From Candidatus Zixiibacteriota bacterium (GTDB taxonomy: Bacteria; JAAXHH01): DNA of 62,794 bases. The stretch lies in the NCBI GenBank assembly GCA_016867335.1, contig VGJU01000001.1, positions 1 to 62,794 of the forward strand, written 5' to 3'. A program made the translations under genes and the position numbers. The notes below the pieces were generated by a model. The model did not search any database. It had not been told where the DNA came from and saw nothing but the letters and a program-made list of their open reading frames with translations. The number at the start of each line of letters is the position of its first letter. The stretch's first letter is position 1. Shown piece after piece: positions 6,931 to 62,045 of the stretch.

Positions 6931-6964
6931 CCCCGTTGTTCTCCGGAACAGCGGGGTTTTTTTA
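6931..6964 (+). terminator. intrinsic terminator
   Basis: An 11-bp stem CCCCGTTGTTC / GAACAGCGGGG (one G-U pair) with loop TCCG, followed by TTTTTTT. It lies 22 nt after the stop of the lipoprotein gene. Confidence 0.8.
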
Positions 6965-7948: not shown

Positions 7949-9152
7949 GCGACGGCGTATTAACCGGAAAGACCGGGAACATACCTTGTATGTGTTGAGC
8001 GACCCATGTTTCGAGCGTGTTCGCCATGTCGTCGATACGGTCGGGCGACAGCGTCGTGCCGCGCCCGTATGCCGTGATCAGACGACTGGCGGCACCGTCC
8101 GGAGCGATACACAACACAGGTTTTCCGGCGGCGAGGTATTCATAGATTTTTCCGGTTGGCACATCCATCGCTTCGGCCGTGTCCGACGTGATAAAAAGCG
8201 CCAGGGCGTCCGCCTCGAGCATCTGTGTCACGGCCTCTCGGTGTGTCAGATATCCGAGGGGGAATAGGGTTTTTTCGAGTCTATAGCTGCGGATGATCCC
8301 GGCAAGATCGATCCCTACCGCCGCGCCTGCCAACCGGACCTCCACACGGGATGCCGCCGCCGGGTTGCGGTCCCATAGTCGCCGCAGGGCACGCAACAAC
8401 GGTTCCGGGTTGCGGGCGGTGTTAAACGCCCCGCAACAGGTCAGCACAAAACGATCCGGATGCGGTGTCGGAGCCGGAGTTGCAAAATCCGCCGGGTCGA
8501 ACCCATTGGGGAGGATCCGCACCACACTGCCGGGCCGTGCCGTCAGGAGTTGCGTACCGATTCCCTCGGATACTGCGGTGATGCAGGCCGCCGTATCCAG
8601 AATGGTTTTCTGAAGCCGCTCGGTCAGATGGCGTCCTGCATCGCCGCGAAAACGCTCAAATTCGCCACCGGTCCACGCATCCCGGAAGTCGGCTATATGC
8701 GGCAGACCGGTAAGCCGATGGAGCAAATGCCCAGCCCAATGGGCGGAAGCAGGCGGAAACGTTGAAAAGATTGCTTCTACGGGTTCACGGGATATGACGC
8801 GAAGCCCGCGTGCTACGGCAAAAGGTATCCATCCGGCTTGATAGTCGGGAAAACAAATCCGACGCAACCATGCCGGTCCGGCAGTTACCTTTGCTTTGTC
8901 CGAATGGGATTTGTTCCCGATCAAATACGCCAGTCGAAGCGGGTCGAGCGATTCCGTGCGTTCCACACACACCGTTTCGGGAAGTTCGTCGAGAAGCGAA
9001 GGGTCGTAGCCGTAGTAACGCACATTTTTTACCGTTATCACGACGGGGCGCCATCCGTACTCCGGGAGATAACGGGCGAATTTGAGCGCGCGCTGCACCC
9101 CGCCCAACCCCATCGGCGGGAAATAGTAGGCCAGCATGAGAACGGAAGACAT
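7878..9152 (-). CDS. GT-B (family 4-like) glycosyltransferase
   Basis: Track ORF 7878..9272 trimmed to the Met at 9152 (MSSVLMLAYYFPPMGLGGVQR). The C-terminal region includes KIYEYLAAGKPVL. TGATG stop/start overlap with the upstream gene. Confidence 0.75.
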   Translation of the reverse strand: MSSVLMLAYYFPPMGLGGVQRALKFARYLPEYGWRPVVITVKNVRYYGYDPSLLDELPETVCVERTESLDPLRLAYLIGNKSHSDKAKVTAGPAWLRRICFPDYQAGWIPFAVARGLRVISREPVEAIFSTFPPASAHWAGHLLHRLTGLPHIADFRDAWTGGEFERFRGDAGRHLTERLQKTILDTAACITAVSEGIGTQLLTARPGSVVRILPNGFDPADFATPAPTPHPDRFVLTCCGAFNTARNPEPLLRALRRLWDRNPAAASRVEVRLAGAAVGIDLAGIIRSYRLEKTLFPLGYLTHREAVTQMLEADALALFITSDTAEAMDVPTGKIYEYLAAGKPVLCIAPDGAASRLITAYGRGTTLSPDRIDDMANTLETWVAQHIQGMFPVFPVNTPSLASFTRPFLAEQLARVLDTAAIH

Positions 9153-10027
9153 CAAGTAACGGATACGCCCGCCTCCCGGGCGATGCGATGCACGTTGGCT
9201 ACCGCGGTCGGGATACGGTCGTCGGGCAGATGCTCGACCAGCATGTAGCCGGTCGGATACAACGCCTCCCACCGGCGTACCGCAGTCACAAGATCGAGTT
9301 CTCCCTCACCCGGAACCTCTTCGTCGATATGCAGTACCAGCCCGTCGGAGAGTTTGATGTCCTTGATATGGGCGATGGAGGAGATGTCGCCCATCACGTC
9401 GAAGATATGGTCGATACGACTTGTGCTGTTGTAAACCTGTTCGAGCGACTGGAAATGGTTGACAAAATCCATGACCACTTTCATGCGGGACGACCCCACC
9501 GCTTCGATCACCTGTCGGTTGATTTCCGGCGACCCCATGAGGGTCAGTAGATGGGTTTCGATCACGATCGTCATCCCTTCGTGTTCGGCTTTGTCGGCGA
9601 CACGGCGGAGCGTTTCTACAAGCTGTTCGAGTCTTCCGGATTCGATATTTCGGCGTGAAGGGCTGTACGCGCCGGCGGGGTTAAGGCTACCGGTGCGGAT
9701 CAAGGCCATGCCGGCGTTGAGTCTGCATGCCGTCTCAATCCCCCGGTCGATAAGCCGGACGACGTGGTTTCGGGTTTCGGCGTCCGGGTCAAACAAACAT
9801 TCCCTGTATCCGATACCCATTTGTGCCAGTTCGAGACCCTCTTGGGTGTACAGATCGTTGATACCTCGGCAGTCAGGCGCCGTTAGCTCCGAAAGAATGG
9901 GTTCGCCGATGTGATAGCAGACCGTCGTGATGTTCAACGCTCCGGCCCGACGCAGATGTTCGGCAGTGATTGCGCGGGGGTCGCCCGGAACCATGCCAAC
10001 GATGCCGAGACGCATGGGTAACTCCAT
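9152..10027 (-). CDS. sugar phosphate isomerase/epimerase (xylose-isomerase-like TIM barrel)
   Basis: 291-aa ORF with the typical pattern (IVIETH, VMDFVNH, MLVEHL). GGAG lies 8 nt upstream of the ATG. Confidence 0.7.
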   Translation of the reverse strand: MELPMRLGIVGMVPGDPRAITAEHLRRAGALNITTVCYHIGEPILSELTAPDCRGINDLYTQEGLELAQMGIGYRECLFDPDAETRNHVVRLIDRGIETACRLNAGMALIRTGSLNPAGAYSPSRRNIESGRLEQLVETLRRVADKAEHEGMTIVIETHLLTLMGSPEINRQVIEAVGSSRMKVVMDFVNHFQSLEQVYNSTSRIDHIFDVMGDISSIAHIKDIKLSDGLVLHIDEEVPGEGELDLVTAVRRWEALYPTGYMLVEHLPDDRIPTAVANVHRIAREAGVSVT

Positions 10028-18144: not shown

Positions 18145-18285
18145 AACAGGGTTCAAAACGAGGTTTGAAGGGTAAAGAAAATCTGTAAACGGACGACGAT
18201 AATATACGTCCGTTTTATGCGGAACGCATGGGCAAAGTCGCGGCGTATACAAGAAAGGACACGCGACAGGCGATAAAGTTGACCA

Positions 18286-18314
18286 TTGACAACCCGTTTT
18301 CGGTGCGGTATACT
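18286..18314 (+). promoter_or_regulatory. sigma70-type promoter candidate
   Basis: TTGACA (18286-18291), a 17-nt spacer, then TATACT (18309-18314). It lies 42 nt upstream of the cyclase ATG. Confidence 0.55.
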
Positions 18315-18355
18315 AATGGGTTGTTCATTCCATAATAACATAAACGGGATAACAT

Positions 18356-19570
18356 ATGACCTGTCCCGAATGTCGTCACGACAACCGTGAAGGGGTGCGC
18401 TACTGCACCCGGTGCGGAACATCCCTCTTTCTTCTTTGTCCTCGCTGTCACGCTGGTGTTGTGGCGGACGACCTATACTGCGGGGAGTGCGGCGTCCGTC
18501 TGCCTGTCGCCACAAGCCGTCCCATCTTGTCCGAAAACCGCCCGACTCGCCCTGAAACGGTATCCACCCCACCCGACGGAAACGGTGCGGCCCGCGCCCC
18601 CATGGAGTCGGCCCGTAAACACGTGACCGTCCTGTTTGCGGACATCTCCTGTTTTACCGCGTTGAGGGAAAAACTCGACCCCGAGCAAGTCACCGATCTC
18701 ATGAATGGGTGTCTGTCCCGGCTGGCCGATGTGGTCCGCAAATACGAAGGCCACGTAGACAAGTTTATCGGCGACTGTATCATGGCGTTGTTCGGCGCGC
18801 CCATTGCGCATGAAAACGACCCGGAACTGGCGGTGCGCGCCGCGCTCGAAATGAAACAGGTGACCGAGGAGTACAACAAAGCGCTACCGGTAAAACTCGA
18901 AAAGCCGCTCAACCTGCATATCGGTATCAATTCCGGCATGGTGGTGGCCGGCGGCGTCGGATCACAGGACCACATGTCGTATACGGTGATGGGCGACACG
19001 GTCAATCTTGCCTCTCGACTAGAGTCGCTGGCAAGCGACCGACAGATATTTATCAGCAAATATACTTACAATCTGGTACGAAGCCGGTTCGATTTTCAGC
19101 CGCACGATCCGATCAAAGTCAAAGGCAAAACCGATCCTGTCCCCGTATACGAGGTACTTGGTATTCGAACCTCGGCGGGCGAGGAGCGACAGACGGTCAA
19201 GACCCCGCTTATCGGGCGTTCTCATGAAAGCGTGCTTCAGCGGGCCTTGCGTATCCATCGAGAACTCGGACTCAACCTCAAAATCATCGCCAACGAATTG
19301 GCGCTTTCCCGTGTAGCCATGGGCAAAGGCGACTACGAACAGGCGGCGGCCTATCTGGGCGATGCGCGCAGTATCGCGGAAACCGACGACAACCGGTCGG
19401 ATCTTGCCAAAATCCTGCATGCCGAAGCCGAGTTGGTGGCCCGTCAGGGGCATGATGCTCGCGCCGGTTTTGAAGCGGCGCCGGCGTTGTTTGACGAACT
19501 TGGAAGAAGCCGAGACGCCGAGCGGGTTCGGGCCGATCTTGCCGCGCATACCTCCGGCCGCCCCGCATGA
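18356..19570 (+). CDS. class III adenylate/guanylate cyclase with N-terminal double zinc ribbon and C-terminal helical-repeat region
   Basis: N-terminus: CPECRHDN..CTRCG and CPRCH..CGECG. Cyclase core: VTVLFADISCFT, FIGDCIMALFGAP, GINSGMVVAGGVG, YTVMGDTVNLASRLE. Confidence 0.85.
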   Translation: MTCPECRHDNREGVRYCTRCGTSLFLLCPRCHAGVVADDLYCGECGVRLPVATSRPILSENRPTRPETVSTPPDGNGAARAPMESARKHVTVLFADISCFTALREKLDPEQVTDLMNGCLSRLADVVRKYEGHVDKFIGDCIMALFGAPIAHENDPELAVRAALEMKQVTEEYNKALPVKLEKPLNLHIGINSGMVVAGGVGSQDHMSYTVMGDTVNLASRLESLASDRQIFISKYTYNLVRSRFDFQPHDPIKVKGKTDPVPVYEVLGIRTSAGEERQTVKTPLIGRSHESVLQRALRIHRELGLNLKIIANELALSRVAMGKGDYEQAAAYLGDARSIAETDDNRSDLAKILHAEAELVARQGHDARAGFEAAPALFDELGRSRDAERVRADLAAHTSGRPA

Positions 19571-29090: not shown

Positions 29091-30041
29091 TCACCCGTCC
29101 CACCGCGATGTTTTGCGGAGGATTTCCCGGTCCGGGACGACCGGGCACGGATCGGCGGCGCGACGACGACACACCTCGAGTATGCGTTGGATCGCGTCGT
29201 ACAGGGCCTGCAGAAACACCCGGTCGCCTTTGAGCAACGCGCCGATACCACGCAGGGTCATCCAAAGGGCGTGATACGCCAACAGTCGGCGGTCTCGAAT
29301 GTTGCGCCACACGAACAGGATTCGGTTTCTCCGGCTGATACGTTCTACCGTCCGGATTTCATACGCCGATTTGATTGTCGCGCTGTGTTCGTGTCGCGCC
29401 CGGCTTTGCGGTTCATAGCGTATTTCCCATCCACGTTGCCAAGCGCGGTAGGAAAGATCAAGGTCTTCCGAGTAAAACGGCGCATACAGCGGGTCGAATC
29501 CGCCTAGCTCGAGAAATTTCGCTCTGCTCCATGCCGCCGCCGCTCCGTTGGCGTAGAGCGAGAGAGTGGGGCGCTCCCTGTCGGCATCGCGTTCGGCCCA
29601 GCGCAGTCTAAGCAGACCGCCGTGAAAGTATCCGCGTACCAACCCTCCACCCGGCGTACTCCCGTCCATCTGAAACACCCTTGCATTGACGGCAAACACC
29701 CGGTCGTCCCGAAAGTTTACCAACAGGGGCGCAAGAAACCCGGGTTCGACCACGATGTCGTTGTTGAGCAGAACCACGACCGGGGCGCCGCTTTGCGCGA
29801 CCCCTTTGTTGCACGCCGCGCCAAAACCTCCGTTTTGCTCATGCCGCACCACCACGACACCGGGAAATGACGCAAGGATATGCTCCTGCGTACCGTCCGT
29901 ACTGCCGTCGTCTACTACGATAATTTCCACATTTCCCATATCGCCCGACCGCAACACGGACCGCAGACACCGGTCTACCCACTCACGTCCGTTCCATGTC
30001 GGAATGACGATACTGCATGCGGGACAGGCAGAATCGCTCAT
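29091..30041 (-). CDS. family 2 glycosyltransferase
   Basis: 316 aa with CSIVIPTWNG...VEIIVVDDGSTDGT. Confidence 0.85.
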   Translation of the reverse strand: MSDSACPACSIVIPTWNGREWVDRCLRSVLRSGDMGNVEIIVVDDGSTDGTQEHILASFPGVVVVRHEQNGGFGAACNKGVAQSGAPVVVLLNNDIVVEPGFLAPLLVNFRDDRVFAVNARVFQMDGSTPGGGLVRGYFHGGLLRLRWAERDADRERPTLSLYANGAAAAWSRAKFLELGGFDPLYAPFYSEDLDLSYRAWQRGWEIRYEPQSRARHEHSATIKSAYEIRTVERISRRNRILFVWRNIRDRRLLAYHALWMTLRGIGALLKGDRVFLQALYDAIQRILEVCRRRAADPCPVVPDREILRKTSRWDG

Positions 30042-30835
30042 GCGATAGGTTGGTCGGACGTGGACGTGTCCGCATCATACGCCGATCCGGGCTTGGGGCA
30101 GGTCATTTGCCATACCTTGACCAGACGCAAAAACGAATACAGCCCCATACACAAACTGAATAGCAACCCGATGTACCCGTCCCGGTAGCCTTGTTTGACG
30201 ATAAAACACTTCCACGCCATGCCGATGGGCGAAAAGACCACCCGCGCGCGGCCTGCGCGCTGGCCCTGTCGAACCCGGTCTTCAGCGTCCACGGTAGTAT
30301 AATAGTCGATCCGAGAGATAAAATCGCTTATCGTGTTGTGCGAGTCGTGATACAAATCTTCGTGAAGGAGTCCCATTTCGCCTTCCACCTCGATATGGGC
30401 ATGCGCGCCGCCGGTCCAGTACCCTTTGCCACGCCGTAGCAGACGCGGTTGATAGCTTGGATTGAGCGTGCCGTGCCGGATCGGATATCCGAGAAAGTGT
30501 TCGACCCGGTGTATCTTGTATCCGTCGCAAGGAGGATCGGTCTCCAACATCTTCCTCAACCGAGCGTTGAGACCGTCCGTCAAGTATTCGTCGGCATCCA
30601 AAAACAAAATCCAGTCGCCGGTGGCGTATTCCATGCCGAGCGTGCGCTGACGGGCAAACCCCTGCCACGGGTGTCGGTATATCCGGTCCGTGTATTCGGC
30701 GGCGATATCGGTGGTTTTGTCCGTGCTAAAGCTGTCCACCACGACGATCTCGTCGGCCCATCGGACCAGTTCGAGACATCGCCGGAGTTTTTTTTCTTCG
30801 TTTAACGTGATGACGACGACGGACAGACGGTTCAT
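30038..30835 (-). CDS. family 2 glycosyltransferase
   Basis: Track ORF trimmed to MNRLSVVVITLNEEKKL...VVVDSFSTDKT (265 aa). 4-nt overlap with the downstream GT2. Confidence 0.8.
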   Translation of the reverse strand: MNRLSVVVITLNEEKKLRRCLELVRWADEIVVVDSFSTDKTTDIAAEYTDRIYRHPWQGFARQRTLGMEYATGDWILFLDADEYLTDGLNARLRKMLETDPPCDGYKIHRVEHFLGYPIRHGTLNPSYQPRLLRRGKGYWTGGAHAHIEVEGEMGLLHEDLYHDSHNTISDFISRIDYYTTVDAEDRVRQGQRAGRARVVFSPIGMAWKCFIVKQGYRDGYIGLLFSLCMGLYSFLRLVKVWQMTCPKPGSAYDADTSTSDQPIA

Positions 30836-30840
30836 ACCGT

Positions 30841-31641
30841 TTACCGGTGGAGGTCTTGGGGCAGGTCTTCGGGGTTTTGCCACCGATGCCACAGCTTGGC
30901 GTATTTGGCAAACACATAAGAGGCGGACAGCCCGCACAGAATCAACCCCGGCAGACCGTCCAGAAAACCCCGTTTGAGTACGTACATCTTGAAGAAGGCG
31001 AAGATGGGGCGGACGAGAAGGTCCGTCAACCGGAATCGGCGGCCCGACCGGTAAAGCTGATCGGCGGCAAGCGAGGTGTACCGGTTGAATTTGGTCAGAT
31101 AATGCTCCAGCGATGGATCGGTGTGATGGATAAGCGGCGAGGTGAGAGAAGCGACGGGGCCGTCCACAAGCACCCGTTCGTGTACGAGGACGTCGGAAAA
31201 ACGGCCTGCTTCGCGCCGAAACAGACGAAGGACATCGTCCGGATACCATCCGCAGTGCGCGATCCATCGTCCAAGAAAAATGGCTTTGCGCGGGATGTAA
31301 AACCCTGCCGTATCCGTCCGTCGGAGCGCGGCAAGGATTTCCTCACGGAGCGCGGGCGTAACCCGCTCGTCGGCGTCGATCCAGAGTATCCACCCGCAGG
31401 TGGCTGTCTTGCACCCGATTTCCTTGCTTTCCGAATACCCGCGCCATTCGGTTTCGATGACACGCGCCCCACACGCTTGCGCCTGCGCGACCGTATCGTC
31501 CGTACTCCCGGTGTCGACCACGATCACCTCGTCGGCAAACCCTACGGTTTCGAGACACGGGCGTATCTGATGCGCTTCGTTTTTGACCAAAACGATGGCG
31601 GAGAGTGACGTGTCGGGCGGAGAAGAGGAGGGGGCGGTCAC
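30841..31641 (-). CDS. family 2 glycosyltransferase
   Basis: 266 aa with LSAIVLVKNEAHQI...VIVVDTGSTDDT. Confidence 0.85.
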   Translation of the reverse strand: MTAPSSSPPDTSLSAIVLVKNEAHQIRPCLETVGFADEVIVVDTGSTDDTVAQAQACGARVIETEWRGYSESKEIGCKTATCGWILWIDADERVTPALREEILAALRRTDTAGFYIPRKAIFLGRWIAHCGWYPDDVLRLFRREAGRFSDVLVHERVLVDGPVASLTSPLIHHTDPSLEHYLTKFNRYTSLAADQLYRSGRRFRLTDLLVRPIFAFFKMYVLKRGFLDGLPGLILCGLSASYVFAKYAKLWHRWQNPEDLPQDLHR

Positions 31642-36219: not shown

Positions 36220-36233
36220 ACGCCGCGACGTTT

Positions 36234-36306
36234 GCCCCTGTAGCTCAGAGGATAGAGCAGCGGTTTCCTAAACCGTTGGTCGGGTGTTCGAGTCTCCCCA
36301 GGGGCA
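36234..36306 (+). tRNA. tRNA-Arg (anticodon CCU)
   Basis: Hand-folded cloverleaf. The 7-bp acceptor GCCCCTG/CAGGGGC is present, with U8, a D-arm GCTC/GAGC with GG, and anticodon stem GCGGT/ACCGT with loop TT-CCT-AA. The T-arm GGGTG/CTCCC has a TTCGAGT loop and one U-U mismatch. No CCA is encoded. Confidence 0.85.
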
Positions 36307-36307
36307 T

Positions 36308-37003
36308 CTATCCTCGTTCTACGGACCGTTCGAGCAGTTGTTGCAGACGTTCCGGAAAAGCCGTGTATATTTCCCTTTTGACAAGAGGCCAGCCTTCGGG
36401 GGGTCTGTATACATACCACGGGATATAGGCGGCGTTGGCGCCCATCCGGTGCGCCGAAACGGCCGTATTGGGACCGTTGCGATGCCATGTGGCGCCGTGC
36501 CAGATCAGCACCGACCCTTTTTTTCCTATCATCGGTATTTCTTTTTCGAGGGCATCGGCGTCAGGTGGACGACCCGACACATGGCTTCCCGGAACCAGCC
36601 GTGTCGCGCCGTTGTCCGGCGTGAAGTCGGTCAGCATCCACATGGTCTGAAGCAGCATGGGCCATGGCGGCCAAGGCTGTTTGACCCCGCCCAGTGGCCA
36701 GTCGGAATGAAGCCCGCCTCCCGGGGCGCCGGGTTGACACCACATCATGCACACGTTGTTTGCGAGAAAAAACGGTTTGCCCAGCAGACGTTCGGCGATT
36801 TCCATGATGGCCGGATGATGACACAGCTGCGCGAGGTCCGGGATCGGGTTGAGCGCGCCTTCCAGTTTGACATAACCGCCGGTCCGGTTCATGAGCGGCT
36901 GTGCCAGACGGTCCAACCGTTCCGCCTCGGCAGGATCGAGTAGGTTCTCCAGGATACAGTATCCGTTTTGTTCGATATGAGCGACCGCAACGTCGGTATC
37001 CAT
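36308..37003 (-). CDS. PhyH-family 2OG-Fe(II) dioxygenase
   Basis: 231 aa with IEQNGYCILENLL, GGGLHSDWP and ATWHRNGPN. Confidence 0.75.
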   Translation of the reverse strand: MDTDVAVAHIEQNGYCILENLLDPAEAERLDRLAQPLMNRTGGYVKLEGALNPIPDLAQLCHHPAIMEIAERLLGKPFFLANNVCMMWCQPGAPGGGLHSDWPLGGVKQPWPPWPMLLQTMWMLTDFTPDNGATRLVPGSHVSGRPPDADALEKEIPMIGKKGSVLIWHGATWHRNGPNTAVSAHRMGANAAYIPWYVYRPPEGWPLVKREIYTAFPERLQQLLERSVERG

Positions 37004-51131: not shown

Positions 51132-54100
51132 TTACTTTACCAGCGTCATCTTTTGCGGGGCCGTATAAGCCCCTGCGGTCAACCGGTATAGGTAGACTCC
51201 GCTGGCGACAGCCCGTCCGCTGGCATTGCGTCCGTTCCACACAGCCTCATAGGTTCCCGTGCTCTGCACTCGATCCACCAGCGTGGCGACCTCTTGAGCT
51301 TGCAAGTTGTAGACGGTCAGCCGGACCGGGCCGGTACGCGCAACCGTATACCGAATCGCCGTGTCCGGGTTGAACGGGTTTGGATAGTTCTGGTTTAACG
51401 CATACGCACGTGGCAAAACATCGGTTCTTCCCCCGTCCGGAATCGCAGTCGGTGTGGTGGATGCCAGCGCCCACGTGGAAAACTTCGTCGTAGTGGCCGT
51501 AGCGACGTTTGCTAGCGTATCGACGACAGTAACCAACTGTATCCATGTCGAGTCCGCCGTATTGTAACGGAAAAGCCGCAACGAGGTTTCGCCGGTCACC
51601 TTGGCGCTGTCGAGTTGAGCCTTTGTATATTTCACGCGGAGTTGCGCGGAAAAAGCAACCGTATCCGGGATGGTGGACGATAGCGTAAAGTACTGCACGG
51701 GCACGCTGGGTGGGGGCGATTTGGGTAACGCCGAAGGCAGTTTGCGTCCGTAGTTGAGATAGGTGACGCTCCGTCCTGATACCGTGCCGGAAATAAATTT
51801 TATCACCGCCTGCGAGCCGTCCGGCGCGTTAAACGCCACCGTAGCGGTGTCCGACGTCGCCGGTTGCTCGCTTGCCGTAGACGTTCCGAGAAATATCCCG
51901 CATCCGTGCGTCGCCACCGCCACGATGCCATCCGACAACCGCGCGTCCAGCGCCGATACGATGGTCTTGCCGATTACGTCCGCGCCCTCCTGAAGCCACG
52001 TCGTATTGGCTCCGTTGAGCGTCGTCGTAGAAAACAACCCGACGCTCGTGCCGATCAGATACTGCGTGATGCTGCCGACAGGCAAAATCGCCCCCCATCG
52101 CAGCGAAGGTCCGGGATGGTTTGTCGTACCAGTCAGGTTGCCCTCGACGGCGGTATAGCTCTGACCCCCATTCGTGGAATGATACAACCCCACGATGTTG
52201 TAGTTGGACATGACCACCATGATCTCCGCCGCGTTGTTCGGGTTGACGGCGATGTGGTGGACATACGCCCCGGCCGGCGCGCCCGGAATCGAGATTCCCG
52301 TCTCTCCGTCCGTAGCGGTTCGGGCACTGTCGAGACGGTATATCTTGGGCGCGGCCACACCCCGACGGGTCGCTTGCGGCAAAATACAACCGTCCTGCCG
52401 GGTTGGTCGTCGATACGCTCAAAGCCGACACGGTCGTGCCGGAGGGCCCGGACACGTTGTTTAACTTGGTTCATCCCGTAGACGTGGTCGCTGTGCCGAG
52501 ATTGCCGTTTCTCCATATCACATGATCCAGAGGGTAAAACAGAATTTTCTCATCTCCCGGATCCACGGCAAAAGGATGGATAAACAACGGAGAACCACCG
52601 TGACCGTCGGGTGGAGCGATAGCCACAAAAGAATCGTCCAGCTCGATTCGGAATGCCTGTCCTTCTTGAGCGGAGGTGATGGCGCGGTCTTTGGCGAGAT
52701 AGACAAACGCGCCGTCGCCGGAAGAGATGTCCACGGAACCGGCTCCCGGATCGGTATAGTCGAAAACGGGTGTACCGTTGTCCTGCGTGCCGCCGGCGAA
52801 GTCGGTCAGTTCGGCCTTGCCCGACTGATGTGCCAAGGCGACCGTGTAAAACTGAGTTACGTTGTATCCGCTGTTCATATCCTCCCAGACCACCGGTTCA
52901 GCGGAGATGTTGTGTGACCGGCTGATGCCACCGTCATGCCCGGACCAGAGCATGTTGGAATTGAAAGGGTCGAAAAAAAGCGCATGCTGGTCCGCATGGT
53001 GGTTTTCGTATCCGCTGACATCGTTGACGGTCGCATATCCGCCCACCCATCCTTTGTCCTTGATCGTGGGTTTTGTGGCAAACCCATCGGTAGAGCGAAA
53101 CAGATTGATACCGCCGATAAGGACAAAATTGGGATCGTTGGGTTTGAGGGCAATCGCCATGTTGTAGTCAAGTTGTGTGTCCATGTAGCCTACCGGGTTG
53201 CCAAAGTCCGGGATGTTGGCGGACAGATCGGTCGAAGCGCCCGAAGAGAGGACGATTTTGTGTAGTTTTACATCGGTGCGATCGCCGTCGCCCTTAGAAG
53301 TGAGCACATAGGCCAGATCGCGGTTGGACGGCGCGATGGTTATCACGCTCCGGCTGTGGCTGGACGGGAAGGTAGCCGGTGTGACCCGGGTCCACGTATC
53401 GCCATGGTTGACCGATTTGTAGACACCCGGTGTGTCCACCGGCGCGACGCCGAAATTTTCCGAAGACAGCACCGCGACCAGCACCCCACTGCTGTCGGCC
53501 ACGGCTATGTCGCTCCACTGATGCCCCCCGTCGGTTCCGATCACCCGCGAAAACGTGCCGCTGCCATTGGTAGACCGATAGATGCCAAACCCGTCGCTGG
53601 CGATATAGACATTGCCGTTAATCGGACTGACCGCCACCTTGGAGACAAAGTCAAACGGTCCGCTATACTCGTTGGGCGTATTGTCGGCGGACGATGACAA
53701 AAACTGCCATGTCTCGCCGTTGTCGGTCGATTTGTAGATACCATTGCCAAAAAACGTGGCGGTTCCGCCGAGGTCGCTTCCACTGCCGCGCTGTTCGCCG
53801 GATACGTAGTACCAGACGGCGCTTTGCCCGTTTCGCGGGTCTTGGGCAATCCATGTGACGCTAAGTGGCGTATTCATGGAGGTTTTGAGTTTCCATGTCC
53901 GCCCTCGGTCCGTAGACTTCCAAATGCCACCCGACACACCTCCCGCGATGACCACGTTGGAATCCGTCCGACTTACCGCCAGCGCGGTGTACGCCCTCCC
54001 ACATCCGTCGGTCCGGCCTCCTGCCATACAAACGGCGTACCATCCGTGATGCCGGTCGTCTTGCTCAAGACACCGAGACGTTTGGGCAACGCGCGTGCAA

Positions 54101-55299: not shown

Positions 55300-56088
55300 A
55301 TGAAACAGAACGTTCAGCCCGTCACAAGATGCGGAGACGGTGACATCGCGCCATACGTCTTTCTATGCGGCGACCCGGCCCGCGTCCCTAAGATCGCTGT
55401 CGGGTGGAACGACGTCCGCGAGGTCTGCCGGGTACGCGAGTATCTGATCCTGACCGGCGTATACGAGGGAGTAAGGATGACGGCCGCCTCGACCGGCATA
55501 GGCGGCCCCTCTACCGCCGTAATCGTCGAGGAAACGGCCAAACTCGGCGCGCATACCTATATCCGGGTCGGCAATAGCGGGGGGCTGGCCGACGACCTGC
55601 GTATCGGCGACTATGTGATTACGACCGGCGCGGTACGCGACGAAGGGACAAGCCGAAGCTATGTAATCCCCGAATATCCTGCCGTTGCGCATTATGAAGT
55701 CGTATCCGCGCTCATAGAGGCCGCTCGGTCCGTCGGCCCCCGCATCCATGTCGGAACCACGTGGTCCATGGACGGTTTTTACGCCCGGAACAAAGTGCTC
55801 GGAGAAAACGGCGTGTTGCTTTCCATGTCCTATCGCGGCTATACCCAGACCGCTATGAACAACATGGTGCATGATATGAAGATGGCGGGTGTCAAAAACT
55901 GCGAGATGGAATCGAGCACGGTGCTGACGCTTGCCGGGCTGTTTGGTCTGCGCGCCGGATGTATCTGCACCGTGTCGGACCTTACCCCCTGGCCCGGACC
56001 TTGCCCCGAAGCGCTCGATCTGGATCGAAATATGGTCGGCTGTATCGTCGTCGCTTGGAACGCCATGCTCAAACTGGCAAATGGGTGA
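55300..56088 (+). CDS. nucleoside phosphorylase (PNP/UDP family 1, uridine phosphorylase-like)
   Basis: 262 aa with LCGDPARV, STGIGGPS, RVGNSGG and EMES. Confidence 0.8.
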   Translation: MKQNVQPVTRCGDGDIAPYVFLCGDPARVPKIAVGWNDVREVCRVREYLILTGVYEGVRMTAASTGIGGPSTAVIVEETAKLGAHTYIRVGNSGGLADDLRIGDYVITTGAVRDEGTSRSYVIPEYPAVAHYEVVSALIEAARSVGPRIHVGTTWSMDGFYARNKVLGENGVLLSMSYRGYTQTAMNNMVHDMKMAGVKNCEMESSTVLTLAGLFGLRAGCICTVSDLTPWPGPCPEALDLDRNMVGCIVVAWNAMLKLANG

Positions 56089-56176: not shown

Positions 56177-57322
56177 ATGGACCTCTTCCTTCTCATTCCG
56201 CTTGTGTTGACCGCCGACTTAGACTATGCCAACGGTGCAAACGACGTGTCCAGAGGCATTGCCACCCTCGTCGGAAGCAGAGTGACGGATTACCGGCGTG
56301 CATTGATATGGGGTACGGTATGGACGTTTGCAGGCAGTGCGCTTGCAATAGTGGTTTCGATTGCGCTGGTAAAAACGTTTACACGGGGTGTGTTGACCGA
56401 AACCTCGAACATCGGTGACACCGGACGGGTGCTGGCGATCTCGGTCATGATCGCAGCGTCGTTATGGGTATTTCTTGCCACCCGAACTGGTTTGCCGGTA
56501 TCGACCACCCATGCAATCGTCGGTTCGCTGTGCGGCGCAGGGAGTTTTGCCCTCGGCACGGATGGCATCCTGTGGGGTTCGGTCTTTGGTAAAATCGTAC
56601 TTCCGATGGTGATCAGCCCGCTGGTGTCCATGATGCTGGCCTATGTCTCTACCCCTTTGGTATTGCTGGGGTTGTCCGGTTGGGGCGGGCATTGTTTCTG
56701 CGTTTTTCCAGCCCGATCCGCGTTACTGACGGTTGAACCAAGCGGTACAGTACAGATGACGACCATGCAACCCGGTCTTGTTGCCGCCGTAGATGTGCCT
56801 GCTTGCGACACGCCTGCCGAACCGCGCATCCTTTCGTTGCGGATGGGACCGAATACGTTTCACTGGCTAACCGCCGGGTGGACGAGTTTTGCACGCGGTC
56901 TTAACGACGCGCCCAAGGTGACGGCACTCATGGTGGGCTATATGTTGCTGTCCGGCGAAACCGGGATAGGGTTGGAATGGGTGTTTGCAACGGTGGCGCT
57001 ATCCATGACCGCCGGCGCGTATTTGAATGGCCGCCGCGTGACGGCTTCGCTAGCGGAAAAAGTCACCCGCATGGATCATCTTCAGGGATTTTCGGCCAAT
57101 TTGATCACCTCGATACTCGTTACGGTTGCCGCGCATTTCGGTTTGCCTGTATCTACCACGCATGTAAGCACCAGCGCGATCGTAGGGATGGGACTTCATA
57201 ACGGTGTTCGTAGCATAAACTGGAAAATGGTGTCCGAGATGCTGACCGCATGGGTGGTGACGGCTCCTCTGTCCGCACTTATTGCGGTCTGTGTGGCTTT
57301 TCTTTTATCCACACTCCTGTAA
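56177..57322 (+). CDS. PiT-family inorganic phosphate transporter
   Basis: 381 aa with the duplicated PiT signature (ANGANDVSRGIAT near the N-terminus, GLNDAPKV in the second half) and about 10 TM helices. Confidence 0.85.
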   Translation: MDLFLLIPLVLTADLDYANGANDVSRGIATLVGSRVTDYRRALIWGTVWTFAGSALAIVVSIALVKTFTRGVLTETSNIGDTGRVLAISVMIAASLWVFLATRTGLPVSTTHAIVGSLCGAGSFALGTDGILWGSVFGKIVLPMVISPLVSMMLAYVSTPLVLLGLSGWGGHCFCVFPARSALLTVEPSGTVQMTTMQPGLVAAVDVPACDTPAEPRILSLRMGPNTFHWLTAGWTSFARGLNDAPKVTALMVGYMLLSGETGIGLEWVFATVALSMTAGAYLNGRRVTASLAEKVTRMDHLQGFSANLITSILVTVAAHFGLPVSTTHVSTSAIVGMGLHNGVRSINWKMVSEMLTAWVVTAPLSALIAVCVAFLLSTLL

Positions 57323-57423
57323 AGACGCAAACCGGAAAACGGTCCCTCCATGGTTGTTAAGATAGCCACTCGGAGGGCTAAACGATACGGCTCTGTTTGG
57401 GAAAAGCCGGCAAGGAGTTTTGT

Positions 57424-59925
57424 ATGACGACGGTAGAGTTTAACGAAAAGCTTGTTTTGCACACGCCTGCACTGGCCGGTCACGACTACGATAGCGTAAC
57501 GCTGATGATGGACCCGGACGCCCCCAACTGGATCGGAACGGACCGTCGAGGCGCGCGTCTGCTCCGTATGCTGGATGGACACCGGACTTTTGGCGAGGTC
57601 GTGAGTCTGTATGCACAGGAAAACGCCATGGATGTGGCCAAAGCATGGCTGCACTGTCACGACTTTGTCAAGGAAGCGATGCGTTATAACATGGTTTCCC
57701 TCAAACCGTTTGTCTCGCCGCCGTATGCGGGGCGCGCCGCCGTCGCCAAAGCCGACCGTCTTTCCGAACTGTGGATACACACCAACAACTCGTGCAACCT
57801 TACCTGCGCGCACTGTCTGGTGTCCTCGTCGCCACACGGTGAAGCCGGTCTCCCTACGGAAACGCTCAAGCGGATCATCGACGAGGCGGTGGACGCGGGA
57901 GTGGAGCGGTTCTATTTTACCGGCGGCGAGCCGTTTGTCCGCAAAGACCTCTTTGATCTTATCGGATACGTCACCGATCGGGCCGACTTAGTCATCCTGA
58001 CCAACGCGATGCTGCTTCACGGTACGCGGCTCAACCGTCTGGCGGCGATGGACGCTTCGCGTCTGCGTTTTCAAGTGAGTGTGGACGGATCGACCCCCAA
58101 AATCAACGACCCCATACGCGGCGAAGGCAGTTTTGCAGGCACGATACGCGGACTTAAAAACCTCAAATCCATCGGTTTCGATCCAACGATCACCACGGTC
58201 GTCACGCCCGACAACGTAGATGATGTACCCAACGTCACACGGCTTGCGGGCGAGTTGGGGCTGTCCACGCACCATCTCATGTGGATGCACGCACGTGGTC
58301 GCGCCACCGAGCCGGGCGGAACCGGTATCGTGCTGTCGGTGGAACGGCTGATCGAGACCGCCAAAAAGGCGCGTGCCGCCGGCGAAGAGGTCGGCGTCAC
58401 CATAGACAACTATCAAGCGATGGAGAACCGAGTCAACGGCGAACCGAGCGTCAAACTCGATCTGAGTCTGGCCGGATGGGGTTCGCTGTGCGTCTATGCC
58501 GACGGTCACGTATACCCGTCCGCCTCGTTTGCGGGTCATGGACCGCTCGACATGGGCAGCGTCCTTGAGCGTCCGCTCAAGGACATCTGGCTCGACTCCC
58601 CGATCGCCCGTCATTTTCGCGAGGCAACGGTCCAGCAAAAGGATGTCTGTCACGCTTGTCATCTCAAGTTTGTCTGTGGCGGCGGCGACATCGAACACAG
58701 TTATTTTCACTCGCGCCGTATCGAGGGCGAAGGCCGTCTGCTCGCATGGGATCCCTATTGTGAACTGTACCGACATTTTATCTACGAAGGCATGGGAAAA
58801 CTGACCGAGGACAAGGCGCGCGCAAAAGTCAATTCGGGCTACAACTCGCCGCCGCTGCACCATGCGATGGGCGAAGGGGCGGTCGTTTGCGGCGCAAACG
58901 GTCATGCCCCGCGTCCCGGCGCGTTGCGGGTGGAAATGCTTCACTCCAACTGCGTGCTGACTTACGACCTCGACATATCCCGCGCCGTGGTTCGCGAGTT
59001 TTACGGTCAGGCCGCCGAACAACCCCAGACCGAACTGTGCTGTCCTACTTCCTACGACCGCAGTCTGACCGAACATATTCCGCAAGAAGTACTCGACCGG
59101 TTTTACGGATGCGGGTCGCCCATGGAACTCGGCGAAGTACAGCCGGGCGAAACGGTCATCGACCTCGGCTCCGGCGGTGGGATCGACTGTTTTATCGCGG
59201 CCCGATTGGTCGGGGCGACCGGCAAGGTTGTCGGAGTGGACATGACCGATCAGATGCTTCAGGTGGCGCATGAAAACCGAGTCAAGGTAGCTACCTCGCT
59301 CGGATACGACGTGGTGGAGTTTCGCAAAGGGTTTTTGGAAGAACTGCCGGTCGAGGACCGCAGTGTGGACCTGATCACGTCAAACTGCGTGATCAACCTG
59401 TCGCCCGACAAAAAACGGGTGTTCCGCGAGATGTGGCGCGTCCTCAACGACCACGGGCGGGTCGTGGTTTCCGACATCGTCACCGAAGTGTCGGTCCCGG
59501 CGCATCTGCAAGCCAACGCGCGGCTGTGGGGCGAATGTCTGAGCGGCGCGCTGACCGAAGACGAATTTCTCAGCTTTCTCGAACAGGCGGGATTTTACGG
59601 GCTGGCCATACTTAAAAAGACGTACTGGAAAGAAGTGGAAGGCTATCGGTTTTATTCGGTTACGGTACGCGGGTTCAAATACGAGAAAAAGGCAGGATGC
59701 GTGTATATCGGTCAGGCAGCTATCTACCGGGGACCGTTCAAATCCATCATGGACGAGGAAGGTCATCTATTCCCGCGCAACGAGGCCATCGCAGTATGCA
59801 CCGACACCGCCGCCAAACTCCAGCAGGGACCGTACACGGGGCTGTTTACCGTGACCGACCCGACCCGCGAAATCCCGGAAGATTTTCTCTCCGCCTGTTG
59901 TGGCCCGGGCGGCGCGTGTTGCTGA
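57424..59925 (+). CDS. arsM: PqqD/RRE-like head + radical SAM + SPASM domain fused to a full-length ArsM-type As(III) SAM methyltransferase
   Basis: 833 aa from the ATG at 57424, with AAGGAG 6 nt upstream. Radical-SAM and SPASM motifs: CNLTCAHC, CVYADGHVYP...CHACHLKFVCGGGD. ArsM motifs: LCCPTSY, FYGCGSP, VIDLGSGGGID, ITSNCVINL, LWGECLSGAL and a terminal CCGPGGACC. Confidence 0.8.
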   Translation: MTTVEFNEKLVLHTPALAGHDYDSVTLMMDPDAPNWIGTDRRGARLLRMLDGHRTFGEVVSLYAQENAMDVAKAWLHCHDFVKEAMRYNMVSLKPFVSPPYAGRAAVAKADRLSELWIHTNNSCNLTCAHCLVSSSPHGEAGLPTETLKRIIDEAVDAGVERFYFTGGEPFVRKDLFDLIGYVTDRADLVILTNAMLLHGTRLNRLAAMDASRLRFQVSVDGSTPKINDPIRGEGSFAGTIRGLKNLKSIGFDPTITTVVTPDNVDDVPNVTRLAGELGLSTHHLMWMHARGRATEPGGTGIVLSVERLIETAKKARAAGEEVGVTIDNYQAMENRVNGEPSVKLDLSLAGWGSLCVYADGHVYPSASFAGHGPLDMGSVLERPLKDIWLDSPIARHFREATVQQKDVCHACHLKFVCGGGDIEHSYFHSRRIEGEGRLLAWDPYCELYRHFIYEGMGKLTEDKARAKVNSGYNSPPLHHAMGEGAVVCGANGHAPRPGALRVEMLHSNCVLTYDLDISRAVVREFYGQAAEQPQTELCCPTSYDRSLTEHIPQEVLDRFYGCGSPMELGEVQPGETVIDLGSGGGIDCFIAARLVGATGKVVGVDMTDQMLQVAHENRVKVATSLGYDVVEFRKGFLEELPVEDRSVDLITSNCVINLSPDKKRVFREMWRVLNDHGRVVVSDIVTEVSVPAHLQANARLWGECLSGALTEDEFLSFLEQAGFYGLAILKKTYWKEVEGYRFYSVTVRGFKYEKKAGCVYIGQAAIYRGPFKSIMDEEGHLFPRNEAIAVCTDTAAKLQQGPYTGLFTVTDPTREIPEDFLSACCGPGGACC

Positions 59926-61071
59926 CTACCAGTTGGTATACGATCCGTCGCGGCGGTGCAGATGCGGCGCTTCCCAGAACCGGAACGCCTCCTGCGCCAG
60001 CGTCTCGTCGAATTCTACGCCCAGACCGGGTTCTTCCGGCAATGGATAGCCACACCCGGCCAGTTTGATTTGCTTGGGAAACAGATCGTCACCAAACGAA
60101 AATTCACGTTCGCGCGACTCCAGCCAAGCAAAATTGGGTACGGCGGCGCTGAAATGTACATGTGCGGCCGTGCTGATAGGGCCAAGCGGATTGTGTGGCA
60201 TCATGTCGATATAATGCGCCTCGCACCACCCCGCCACCTTTATCGCCTCGGTAAAACCGCCCACATTGCAGATGTCGATCCGCGCAAACTGGGTCAACCC
60301 CCGCTCGATATACGGCAAAAACTGCCATTTGCTGGAAAACTCCTCTCCAATGGCAAACGGGACGGGGGTCATCGTCCGTAGGGAGGCGTAGGCGTCGGGG
60401 CATTCGTCACGGATCGGCTCTTCGAGAAAATCGAGCGCCCCGGGCAAAAGACGCTGACAAAACGAGGCGGCCTCGGCTACGCTCAACCGATGGTGATAGT
60501 CTATACCGAGCACCGGTCCCGGCCCTACCGCCTCGCGGACCCGGTTGAGCCATTCGGCTGTCAGCCCGATGGATTCGCGTGGTTCGAACAGATTCGGGTC
60601 GCCGCCCGTATCGGGGTGTCCGGGAACAAAACGGATCGACTGCCAGCCGTCGGCAACCATTTTTTGCGCGTGTTCGACGACCGCAGGACCGTCAAGCCCG
60701 ATCGAGGTGACAAACCCCGGCACGATATCGCGATGCGCGCCACCCAACAGCCGATACACAGGAATGCCGAGACTGCGGGCCACAAGATCGTGCAACGCAA
60801 TGTCGATCGCCGATATCGCCCCGGTAAGAATACGACCGCCTTCGAAATACTGACTTCGGTACATCTCCTGCCACAACGCGCCGATACGTCGGGGGTCTTT
60901 GCCGATCAAAAATTCGCGGTAGTGCCGGATCGCGCCTTCTACCGCCAGTTCGCGCCCCGATATGCCAGACTCGCCCCAACCGTAACAACCGTCGTCCGAC
61001 TCTATCTTGACGATCAACTGGTTGCGATGACCGACCCACACCGGAAACGTTCGGATGGAAGCGATTTTCAT
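59926..61071 (-). CDS. enolase-superfamily dehydratase (mannonate/galactonate dehydratase-like)
   Basis: Track ORF trimmed to MKIASIRTFPVWVG (381 aa). Carries GWGESG, IDIALHDL, GIDYHH, FLEEP and FAIGEE. Its stop codon abuts the stop of the convergent 57424-59925 gene. Confidence 0.8.
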   Translation of the reverse strand: MKIASIRTFPVWVGHRNQLIVKIESDDGCYGWGESGISGRELAVEGAIRHYREFLIGKDPRRIGALWQEMYRSQYFEGGRILTGAISAIDIALHDLVARSLGIPVYRLLGGAHRDIVPGFVTSIGLDGPAVVEHAQKMVADGWQSIRFVPGHPDTGGDPNLFEPRESIGLTAEWLNRVREAVGPGPVLGIDYHHRLSVAEAASFCQRLLPGALDFLEEPIRDECPDAYASLRTMTPVPFAIGEEFSSKWQFLPYIERGLTQFARIDICNVGGFTEAIKVAGWCEAHYIDMMPHNPLGPISTAAHVHFSAAVPNFAWLESREREFSFGDDLFPKQIKLAGCGYPLPEEPGLGVEFDETLAQEAFRFWEAPHLHRRDGSYTNW

Positions 61072-61193
61072 GACGGAAGCCTTTCGTGTAAGCAAGGATA
61101 GACCGGATTCCATGTTGCATGTCAGGGGATGCGTCTATATTATACAGACACATTCGGAAAACCGCTACAGGGATTCGTAAAAAGGACACGCGC

Positions 61194-62045
61194 ATGGCCT
61201 TGCTGAACCGGCAACAATGCACGCTTTACGAAGAACAGGGCTATCTGATCGTCCGGGACGTACTTACGGACGACGATCTATCGCTGGTTCGATCCGCCGT
61301 CGAACGGCACGTGGACGAGCAAGCCCACACGTTTTACGCAGAAGGAAAAATTGCGGAACGGTACGAAAAGCTACCGTTTACCCATCGCCTGACCCAACTC
61401 TACCAACATCGAAGCCGGAAAAGCATCGGGTGGAATCGGGAAGTCTTTAGCCGAGAAATCTACGACTTTGGCATGCTTCCGCAGATTCTCGACATAGCCG
61501 AGTCGCTTGTCGGTCCGGAACTCCAGTTTAACGGCGACTACTGGATACGAACCAAGTTGCCCGGCGACAGCGTCACCACGTTCCCGTGGCATCAGGACAG
61601 CGGCTATTACGGCGATCCGACGCCATTTCACATCCTGTCGCTTTGGATCCCGCTGGTGGACGTGGATGAAGAAAACGGCTGTATGCAGGTCATTCCAGGC
61701 AGCCATCGGTGGGGGCTTTTGCCGGTAGGACGAGACGACGAAGGGCATCATGTTCCGCTGGAGGAACTGGAAAAACGCGGAGAGGTCGTCACGCTGCCCA
61801 TGAAAGCTGGAGAGATTTTTGCCTTTCACAACCTGACGATTCACCGATCCCTGATGAATCGGACGGACGGCATCCGCTGGAGCATCGATCTTCGATATTC
61901 GGAAACCGGCATGCCGCTGGTATGGCTCTGGAAATGCGGACTCAACGGATTTGTCGCGCGTAGCCGCAAAAATCCGGATCAGGTGGATGCGTGGGAAGGC
62001 TGGCAGGAGAAACGCCGGCTGGCCGATATCGAAGCCGGAAGGTGA
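61194..62045 (+). CDS. PhyH-family 2OG-Fe(II) dioxygenase
   Basis: Track ORF trimmed to MALLNRQQCTLYEEQGYLIVRDV (283 aa). Carries FPWHQDSGYY and LTIHRS. Confidence 0.8.
   Translation: MALLNRQQCTLYEEQGYLIVRDVLTDDDLSLVRSAVERHVDEQAHTFYAEGKIAERYEKLPFTHRLTQLYQHRSRKSIGWNREVFSREIYDFGMLPQILDIAESLVGPELQFNGDYWIRTKLPGDSVTTFPWHQDSGYYGDPTPFHILSLWIPLVDVDEENGCMQVIPGSHRWGLLPVGRDDEGHHVPLEELEKRGEVVTLPMKAGEIFAFHNLTIHRSLMNRTDGIRWSIDLRYSETGMPLVWLWKCGLNGFVARSRKNPDQVDAWEGWQEKRRLADIEAGR

Follow-up and report, generated by a model that had tools for sequence, protein, structure and literature searches.

A radical-SAM enzyme fused to an arsenite methyltransferase as a candidate bifunctional organoarsenical enzyme beside a cysteine-trio PiT permease

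In marine and some freshwater food webs, arsenic is present predominantly as arsenosugars and related organoarsenicals. In the Synechocystis-type pathway the methyltransferase ArsM is followed by ArsS, an enzyme of the radical S-adenosylmethionine (SAM) type (TIGR04167) that adenosylates DMAs(III) to 5'-deoxy-5'-dimethylarsinoyl-adenosine (DDMAA), and to our knowledge ArsS acting after ArsM in cyanobacteria is the sole committed step characterised so far. Here, we analysed contig VGJU01000001.1 of a Candidatus Zixiibacteriota assembly (GCA_016867335.1), a stretch of 62,794 nucleotides that we refer to as the window. It encodes an 833-residue protein in which a head domain, a radical-SAM core, a partial SPASM domain and a complete ArsM share one reading frame. 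On balance, and with modest confidence, we read this fusion as a bifunctional organoarsenical enzyme in which a radical-SAM domain that is not orthologous to ArsS replaces ArsS. Domain identities, conservation and genomic associations were established directly, as follows.

The C-terminal half of the fusion is closest to arsenite methyltransferases by both profile and structure (Table 1). Its best sequence matches in the PDB are the ArsM proteins of Chlamydomonas (5evj, E 2.7e-43) and Cyanidioschyzon (4fr0, E 1.6e-39), and the top 13 Foldseek matches of the fusion are all ArsM/AS3MT structures (TMt 0.60-0.66). A Methyltransf_31 domain lies at residues 574-723 (E 1.6e-33), and the DLGxGxG motif of class I SAM-binding Rossmann folds is present as VIDLGSGGGID. 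On the arsenite methyltransferase model NF008823 the full protein scores 247.5 bits and the domain alone 250.7, under the cut-off of 263. This shortfall is typical of the clade, because ArsM proteins beside true ArsS reach only 232-236 bits. The arsinothricin ArsM model gives 239 bits, far under its cut-off of 500, and the arsenosugar ArsM model gives 183 bits, also sub-cut-off. C563, C655 and C705 align with C72, C174 and C224 of CmArsM (4kw7), whose As(III)-binding set also includes C44, and within the C539/C540 pair C539 aligns with the N-terminal arsenic-site cysteine of CrArsM (5evj). The As(III)-site cysteines are conserved in all members of the 97-sequence family alignment in which residue conservation was counted, and C759 and C792 are invariant or nearly so. 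Every motif that the original prediction had quoted, including these cysteine contexts, was found in the protein. Judged from its sequence, the C-terminal half is a complete ArsM with an intact As(III) site and predicted activity.

The protein ends in a cysteine-rich tail in which C832 is conserved in 97/97, C833 in 96/97 and C826 in 92/97 members. A terminal -CC is common to all ArsS-partnered ArsM proteins with a full C-terminal domain that we examined, and the RCCLKC tail of ArsL, an enzyme of arsinothricin biosynthesis, binds As(III) (bioRxiv 10.1101/2024.02.01.577332). By analogy, the tail is a candidate arm for arsenic hand-off. In the AlphaFold2 (AF2) single-chain model of the fusion (pLDDT 87.8, pTM 0.85), disorder, taken as pLDDT <50, is limited to this tail and to residues 489-498 and 515-517 of the inter-domain linker. 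The linker contains two cysteines, C489 (92/97 members) and C510 (97/97).

The radical-SAM half lies outside the ArsS family. Its core carries the CX3CX2C motif CNLTCAHC (C124/C128/C131, nt 57793-57816; 97/97 members) and a GGEP motif, both invariant over at least 15 phyla. Foldseek matches of this region are CteB, SuiB, SkfB, anSME, BlsE and PqqE, and the best curated profiles (Rv1681, MftC, NirJ2 and AhbD) all score under their cut-offs. TIGR04167, on which true ArsS proteins score 362-454 bits, was not among the listed profile matches of the N-terminal half. When a true ArsS was compared with the window by tblastn, the alignment covered only 166 aa of the radical-SAM core at 22% identity. 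The Cys/Sec-rich C-terminal domain of ArsS, DUF3641, is lacking in the fusion.

The SPASM domain that follows the core has four cysteines only (C356, C409, C412 and C418), not the seven-cysteine motif for two auxiliary [4Fe-4S] clusters. C356 is found in 97/97 members, and C409, C412 and C418 in just 56-59/97. Approximately 40% of the family thus lacks these three residues, implying that the protein can do without an auxiliary Fe-S cluster in its conserved function. In the Cys-less variants, which include the Nitrospirota-labelled P0026, CxxCx5C becomes, for example, DPYRFITGGGD, and the rest of the protein is retained.

The original prediction had noted a PqqD-like pattern in the head and proposed that it resembles a RiPP recognition element (RRE), the domain that serves ribosomally synthesised and post-translationally modified peptides (RiPPs). 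The structural model agrees: the head is a genuine RRE fold, winged-helix-like with three beta-strands and three helices. On the PqqD model PF05402 (cut-off 23.4) the window protein reaches 17.1 bits, and clade relatives score above this cut-off (P0249 26.0, P0264 29.3, P0251 32.7 and P0299 39.7 bits); precomputed PF05402 matches are also present on several full-length homologs. Folded alone, the first 98 residues reach a pLDDT of 95.2, and their best Foldseek match is the TbiB1-leader complex 5v1v (E 3.7e-4, TMt 0.72), with further matches to PqqD (5sxy, TMq 0.69), lasso B1 (6jx3), MadB, McbBCD and PbtF. With this head, Pfam domains and AF2/Foldseek together bear out the predicted four-module architecture. 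The order RRE, radical-SAM, SPASM is shared with the RiPP maturases CteB, SuiB and SkfB and with PqqE/PqqD (the N-terminal half matches with TMt 0.59-0.71, and the head matches the TbiB1 and PqqD RREs with 0.71-0.73); CteB (5wgg) matches the fusion with TMt 0.71 over 481 columns. Unlike these maturases, the fusion has no nearby precursor gene, retains four cysteines in the SPASM region of which three are dispensable, and is joined to ArsM in arsenic contexts.

An exhaustive search with the N-terminal half returned 200 representative clusters at E <= 1e-30, several of which combine the same radical-SAM clade with other domains. In P0273 (705 aa) the order is reversed, with an ArsM-like domain preceding the radical-SAM domain, and in P0259 and P0290 (about 1020-1047 aa) the radical-SAM and ArsM-like domains are followed by a DUF5714/MbdU-like metal-binding domain. 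Other forms join the radical-SAM domain to the sulfur carrier TusA (P0251, 689 aa) or to a generic methyltransferase, or stand alone. That this clade has been fused to ArsM-like domains independently, and in either order, indicates that the two are functional partners.

The fusion is widespread, with more than 1,000 full-length relatives in at least 15 phyla. A search over 5.8 billion proteins identified at least 1,075 relatives among the candidates scored. Of these, 120 were listed, almost all of full length (about 820-860 aa); they share 51-85% identity, carry generic names only and stem from independent NCBI, JGI, ENA and Logan assemblies. An assembly mis-join or frameshift at the domain junction, a concern raised with the original prediction, is ruled out by this full-length architecture across independent assemblies. 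In a one-genome-per-species scan, at least 578 genome stretches encode a relative. Among the best 80 of the 578 or more, nearly all of them labelled as metagenome-assembled genomes (MAGs), Latescibacterota are closest (76%), and the others include Scalindua and other Brocadiales, Nitrospirota, Nitrospinota, Acidobacteriota, Elusimicrobiota, Omnitrophota, Wallbacteria, Thermodesulfobacteriota, Dadabacteria, Gemmatimonadota, Armatimonadota and Hydrogenedentota. No curated NCBIfam model covers the fusion protein, and full-text literature searches found no account of a radical-SAM/SPASM-ArsM fusion or of the transporter subfamily described next.

The fusion gene lies 101 bp downstream of, and on the same strand as, a gene for a 381-aa PiT permease, as originally reported. 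Similar to TmPiT (6l85) and E. coli PitA, this protein has two PHO4 repeat halves, which align to the Thermotoga structure over residues 5-165 and 231-380, and a full-length PF01384 match. Unlike them, it is short (about 377-382 aa across its subfamily), scores far under the PitA and CysP cut-offs, carries an invariant CxC...C cysteine trio in its central loop and is tied to arsenic radical-SAM modules. Among fusion-linked PiT proteins C175 and C210 are present in 23/23 and C173 in 19/23, and the complete trio is found in all 120 of the top PiT homologs, which therefore defines a PiT subfamily. The trio is a candidate As(III)-binding site. Whether PiT is conserved next to the fusion had been posed as a check, and we found it within 6 kb in 22 of 75 fusion loci. 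Conversely, six of seven further sampled Cys-trio PiT genes have an arsenic radical-SAM module beside them, three the fusion and three an ArsM-ArsR-ArsS-PiT operon; the context of the seventh (L167) is unrelated. Since the same PiT clade is found beside either arrangement, the fusion fills the slot of ArsM plus ArsS.

Two of the ArsM-ArsR-ArsS-PiT(Cys-trio) operons (L165:3333-7134 and L169:3333-7134, from the Nitrospira MAGs GCA_029194675.1 and GCA_964465695.1) reside on an apparent integrative/conjugative element with merR, merT, an HMA gene, a phage-type integrase, RadC and the type IV secretion system (T4SS) genes TrbC, VirB3 and VirB4 as neighbours. From this setting, the arsenic radical-SAM module seems to have spread horizontally. 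Separately, a gene for a sulfite-oxidase-family molybdoenzyme (SorA/SoxC-like, sub-cut-off) occurs at L164:8908-9951, right after the fusion, PiT, ArsC-like and VTT genes of that locus.

To characterise the gene neighbourhoods, we called and clustered open reading frames (ORFs) in the 75 fusion loci, 50 of which have at least 3 kb on both flanks. The recurrent neighbours are PiT, the 'arsenosugar biosynthesis glycosyltransferase' TIGR04282 (DUF2064), TIGR04283 (glycosyltransferase family GT2), DUF547 and a pair made up of a VTT/DedA protein and a MerA-like FAD oxidoreductase, along with a cellulose-synthase-like GT2, DUF3179, a polytopic membrane protein and a redoxin with DsbD. At least one recurrent partner family is present in 36 of the 50 well-flanked loci (TIGR04282/3 in 15, PiT in 14, DUF547 in 11, the FAD oxidoreductase in 9 and VTT in 8). 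Over all 75 loci, TIGR04282/TIGR04283 genes are co-located with the fusion in 21; the window has neither. These neighbours score past the curated cut-offs (196.6 bits versus 134 for TIGR04282; 249.8 and 233.5 versus 182 for TIGR04283). The closest genome relative has the fusion, PiT and TIGR04283 in that order, and locus L039 reads PiT, fusion, TIGR04283, TIGR04282, DUF547, VTT, FAD oxidoreductase. L170 and L006 have an ArsR gene immediately upstream of the fusion, and ArsC-like genes are found in L164, L024, L042 and L048. Neither an ArsS-type radical-SAM gene nor a separate ArsM gene was present in the 75 fusion loci, the loci being the extent of this survey.

The accessory set of canonical ArsS loci is the same: DUF547, TIGR04282/3, VTT with the FAD oxidoreductase, GT2, the membrane protein and the redoxin. 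In one such locus, anchored on TIGR04282 in metagenomes, genes for ArsS (437 bits versus 300) and arsenosugar ArsM (555 versus 400) flank TIGR04282. The TIGR04282-anchored metagenome scan recovered canonical ArsS loci and none with the fusion, on contigs that were mostly too short. The fusion and the ArsM plus ArsS pathway have in common an ArsM that ends in -CC and keeps the four As(III)-site cysteines, a CX3CX2C radical-SAM partner, the accessory genes, the Cys-trio PiT and ArsR-type regulators. They differ in that the radical-SAM half of the fusion is not ArsS, comes with an RRE head and with a partial SPASM instead of DUF3641, and is covalently joined to ArsM. With the shared accessory genes and PiT, and no ArsS in the fusion loci, the simplest reading is a functional replacement of ArsS.

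A parallel fusion supports the same idea. Metagenomic contig Ga0154361_104 encodes a natural ArsS-ArsM fusion (L106:8167-9984; 399 bits versus 300 for ArsS), with DUF547, glycosyltransferase, FAD oxidoreductase and VTT genes upstream and TIGR04282 downstream. As in the window, the radical-SAM part is N-terminal to an ArsM part ending in -CC, which at 54% identity is the closest match to the window's ArsM half (45% to ArsM proteins beside ArsS and PiT; 30-34% to glycosyltransferase-cluster ArsM). Unlike the window's protein, it has a bona fide ArsS half, no RRE or SPASM, and an ArsM without the long C-terminal domain. We found no description of such an ArsS-ArsM fusion in the literature searched. 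The original prediction held that described organoarsenical routes use separate enzymes and that the fusion fits no described pathway. The former is true of the literature searched and is qualified by this metagenomic fusion. The latter needs refining: the genomic context places the module in an arsenosugar-type ArsM plus ArsS neighbourhood, with a radical-SAM domain that is not orthologous to ArsS. More broadly, the proposal of an organoarsenical module receives strong support from the conserved PiT linkage, the accessory genes common to ArsS/ArsM loci, the ArsR- and ArsC-like neighbours and the parallel fusion.

From these associations we infer a scheme for the chemical steps, the roles of the tail and the RRE, the PiT substrate and the phosphorylase step. 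The ArsM domain would bind As(III) on its conserved cysteines and methylate it with SAM, presumably to dimethylarsenite, after which the recruited RRE/radical-SAM/SPASM domain, of the RiPP-maturase type, would form a further C-As bond by radical chemistry. The likeliest reaction would be that of ArsS, in which a 5'-deoxyadenosyl radical and DMAs(III) yield DDMAA. The ArsS reaction is redox-neutral, as an arsenic-centred radical re-reduces the cluster and no external electron sink is required (PMC13598754); the loss of SPASM cysteines in roughly 40% of members is therefore compatible with ArsS-type adenosylation. The cysteine-rich -CC tail probably ferries arsenic between the two active sites and may itself be the ligand of the RRE. 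The Cys-trio PiT would be a dedicated arsenical permease, which might take up arsenate or transport an arsenical; its cysteines are suggestive of As(III) coordination. In this lineage, the nucleoside phosphorylase encoded upstream could plausibly cleave adenine from DDMAA, an analogue of methylthioadenosine (MTA), as MTA phosphorylase does with its substrate, to give arsenoribose phosphate; in other lineages the TIGR04282/TIGR04283 transferases would extend the pathway.

Several points weigh against replacement of ArsS by the fusion. The radical-SAM half resembles ArsS only at the superfamily level and no ArsS model recognises it, so its chemistry need not be identical, and the ArsM half scores better on the arsinothricin than on the arsenosugar ArsM model, both sub-cut-off. 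Replacement of ArsS does not account for a ligand of the conserved RRE fold. None of the partner genes is present in 14 of the 50 well-flanked loci, and the window lacks transferase, ArsR and ArsC genes altogether. Curators themselves derived the 'arsenosugar' names of TIGR04282 and TIGR04283 from genome context. Finally, the absence of ArsS applies to the fusion loci, and fusion-bearing genomes may encode one elsewhere.

Some of these points bear on a real, if minority, possibility: that the module belongs to an arsenic pathway but performs other radical chemistry, such as ArsL-like 3-amino-3-carboxypropyl transfer or coupling to another carbon substrate, possibly yielding an undescribed product. 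The radical-SAM half is of the RRE plus SPASM maturase type, in a clade apart from ArsS, its RRE suggests a peptide-like or larger ligand, and the preference of the ArsM half, slight as it is, goes to the arsinothricin model. ArsL provides a precedent as a CX3CX2C enzyme with non-canonical SAM cleavage and an As(III)-binding Cys-rich tail; in Burkholderia gladioli it forms a C-As bond alongside ArsM. However, ArsL is a separate protein that cleaves SAM at the C-gamma-S bond, whereas the fusion neighbourhoods are of the arsenosugar type, with the accessory set and PiT partner of ArsS loci and no ArsS, and neither a glutamine-synthetase-resistance gene nor other arsinothricin-type neighbours were seen in them. 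The fusion is outside the ArsS family yet, by context, within the ArsS/ArsM pathway, and its chemistry or the role of its RRE may possibly be genuinely new. Tentatively, one may go further and picture a RiPP-type radical-SAM enzyme recruited for C-As bonding, with arsenic carried on the protein's own tail and docked by the RRE as a built-in 'leader' (or on a peptide-like carrier). This would constitute a second, independent radical route to adenosyl-arsenicals or to an undescribed organoarsenical, served by an arsenical-specific PiT branch not recognised before and widespread in anammox bacteria, Nitrospirota, Nitrospinota, Acidobacteriota and candidate phyla.

It seems unlikely that the protein serves ArsM-centred detoxification, with the radical-SAM/RRE half as an accessory (for reductive activation, thiol/disulfide cycling or demethylation) and PiT exporting or importing arsenicals. 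The mer genes, integrase and T4SS around the related ArsM-ArsR-ArsS-PiT operons do amount to a resistance-island context, MerR and MerC adjoin the fusion in L168, and ArsR/ArsC-like genes lie by some fusion loci; yet CX3CX2C and GGEP are invariant across at least 15 phyla, and the repeated independent ArsM fusions of the clade and the transferase linkage point to a dedicated chemical step on an arsenical. We regard as quite improbable the peptide-modifying role that the original prediction had offered as an alternative, in which the RRE would recruit a peptide (perhaps the protein's own tail) for cross-linking by the radical-SAM/SPASM domain and methylation by the methyltransferase, with arsenic incidental. 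In its favour are the genuine RRE fold, an N-terminal architecture like that of sactisynthases and SuiB, and standalone clade members that resemble RiPP maturases. When 2,515 small ORFs from the 75 loci were clustered, however, no conserved free-standing ORF of 20-90 aa was found within 1.5 kb of the fusion, and every recurrent small ORF overlapped a larger conserved gene in another frame, which makes a RiPP role unlikely, although a precursor gene might lie elsewhere in these genomes. All four As(III)-site cysteines are invariant, the SPASM cysteines are gone from many members, and the neighbours are arsenic-related, with no protease or RiPP-type exporter among them. Least probable among the explanations we considered is the same module acting on another metalloid or chalcogen (Se, Te or Sb). 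Several selenoprotein families include ArsM-like domains, selenoprotein forms of ArsS exist, the clade includes fusions to TusA and to an MbdU-like metal-binding domain, and thiol-redox neighbours (redoxin, DsbD, FAD oxidoreductase) are frequent. Against this, ArsR-family regulators and ArsC-family reductases adjoin relatives of the fusion, the PiT family carries phosphate-like oxyanions, and the nearest structures and profiles are As(III) methyltransferases.

Within the window, the fusion ORF begins at 57397 (TTG) or 57424 (ATG), the latter start being backed by homolog alignments. It is the third gene of a lineage-specific unit that begins with a PNP_UDP_1 nucleoside phosphorylase gene and continues with PiT. 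This order is kept in the two nearest relatives (P0002 and P0003, with 85% and 83% fusion identity). The unit's flanking genes on the P0003 contig are unlike the window's on either side; on the P0002 contig the downstream genes (two PhyH and one MR_MLE), which P0003 lacks, resemble them. Homologs of the phosphorylase gene were found only in L161 and L162, at 77% identity, so that the gene was seen in this lineage only. As originally described, the window contains no arsR, arsC or acr3-type gene, and a convergent ORF (59926-61113, minus strand) abuts the fusion stop codon. It is a galactonate-dehydratase-like MR_MLE gene, and a PhyH-family dioxygenase gene follows at 61119-62045 (plus strand); their position next to the fusion is likely just local synteny. 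Homologs of the TIGR04282/TIGR04283 transferases are likewise absent from the window. The weak matches to these families at 7.0-7.9 kb and 29-31.6 kb are ordinary GT2 genes of a polysaccharide cluster and unrelated to the module; they fall in two GT2-like glycosyltransferase gene clusters (6962-9272 and 29091-31641, both minus strand) with weak cross-matches to TIGR04283 that are apparent polysaccharide biosynthesis loci.

Table 1 Features of the PNP-PiT-fusion unit in the window, and gene content of loci sampled through Cys-trio PiT homologs.
Feature or locus	Position	Strand	Evidence or gene content
PNP_UDP_1 nucleoside phosphorylase family gene	55300..56088	+	PF01048 E 5.7e-38; uridine-phosphorylase-like, TIGR01718 213 bits vs 280 cut-off
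PiT/PHO4 permease	56177..57322	+	PF01384 E 3.6e-69, 233.8 bits vs 33.7, profile 1-350 of 350
Central-loop cysteine trio C173, C175, C210 (CxC...C)	56693..56806	+	Loop not alignable to TmPiT
Fusion gene (RRE head, radical-SAM core, partial SPASM, ArsM)	57424..59925	+	Pfam/NCBIfam profiles, homologs, AF2 model
RRE/PqqD-fold domain, ~residues 10-90	57451..57693	+	Isolated-domain model, Foldseek; invariant D30, P34, W36, Y63, W75, R87
Radical-SAM core, ~residues 113-300	57760..58323	+	PF04055 E 2e-21, 77.2 bits vs 29.5, residues 121-273
Partial SPASM domain, ~residues 344-435	58453..58728	+	PF13186 29.4 bits vs 21.5, residues 350-413
Flexible inter-domain linker, ~residues 470-520, with C489 and C510	58831..58983	+	Low pLDDT stretches
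Complete ArsM-type As(III) SAM-methyltransferase (Rossmann and C-terminal domain), predicted	58984..59925	+	NF008823, PDB matches, Foldseek
Disordered Cys-rich tail CCGPGGACC, terminal -CC	59887..59922	+	Residues 822-833 pLDDT <50
L164			Fusion, PiT, ArsC-family reductase, VTT
L168			Fusion, PiT, VTT, GT2, DUF2064; MerR and MerC adjoin fusion
L170			ArsR, fusion, DUF2064, PiT, redoxin, DsbD
L165, L166, L169			ArsM, ArsR, ArsS (454 bits), PiT operons; two on mobile element with mer genes

Elsewhere in the window there is no Rfam match, and promoter and terminator pattern counts equal the shuffle expectation, with no excess. Its sole tRNA is tRNA-Arg (CCT) at 36233-36308 (plus strand). Two large, secreted-looking proteins are encoded at 51132-52382 and 52471-54027 (both minus strand); the C-terminal motif NYPNPFNP of the first recalls what we take to be a type IX secretion system (T9SS; Por) sorting domain, which would presumably fit an FCB-group/Latescibacterota-related lineage. 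Among the other fusion loci, an apparent PiT-ArsM fusion in L032 proved to be an artefact, the 'PiT' ORF that matched the fusion C-terminus having been called out of frame. Extra 'fusion cluster' members in Vicinamibacteria loci are MoaA and a Tes-like radical-SAM protein, unrelated to the fusion. In L061, L073, L074, L078 and L080 genes for this ~690-aa radical-SAM protein and MoaA lie a few kb downstream of the fusion (L073:16032-18077 and 18220-19242). The former resembles the tetraether lipid synthase Tes (306 bits versus a cut-off of 450), and the proximity probably reflects synteny within a single lineage and not function.

If our reading is correct, the fusion would be a second, non-orthologous enzyme for the ArsS step, joined to ArsM and found in mostly uncultured, often anaerobic lineages. 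Producers would then include Scalindua and other Brocadiales, Nitrospirota, Nitrospinota, Acidobacteriota, Elusimicrobiota, Latescibacterota and others. Surveys of arsS genes would miss them, and arsM counts would mis-score them as plain arsenic methylators. The protein would also offer a single polypeptide in which to study the hand-off of arsenic between methyltransferase and radical-SAM sites, and a case of an RRE domain in a role other than RiPP biosynthesis, and the Cys-trio PiT clade would be a candidate arsenical transporter.

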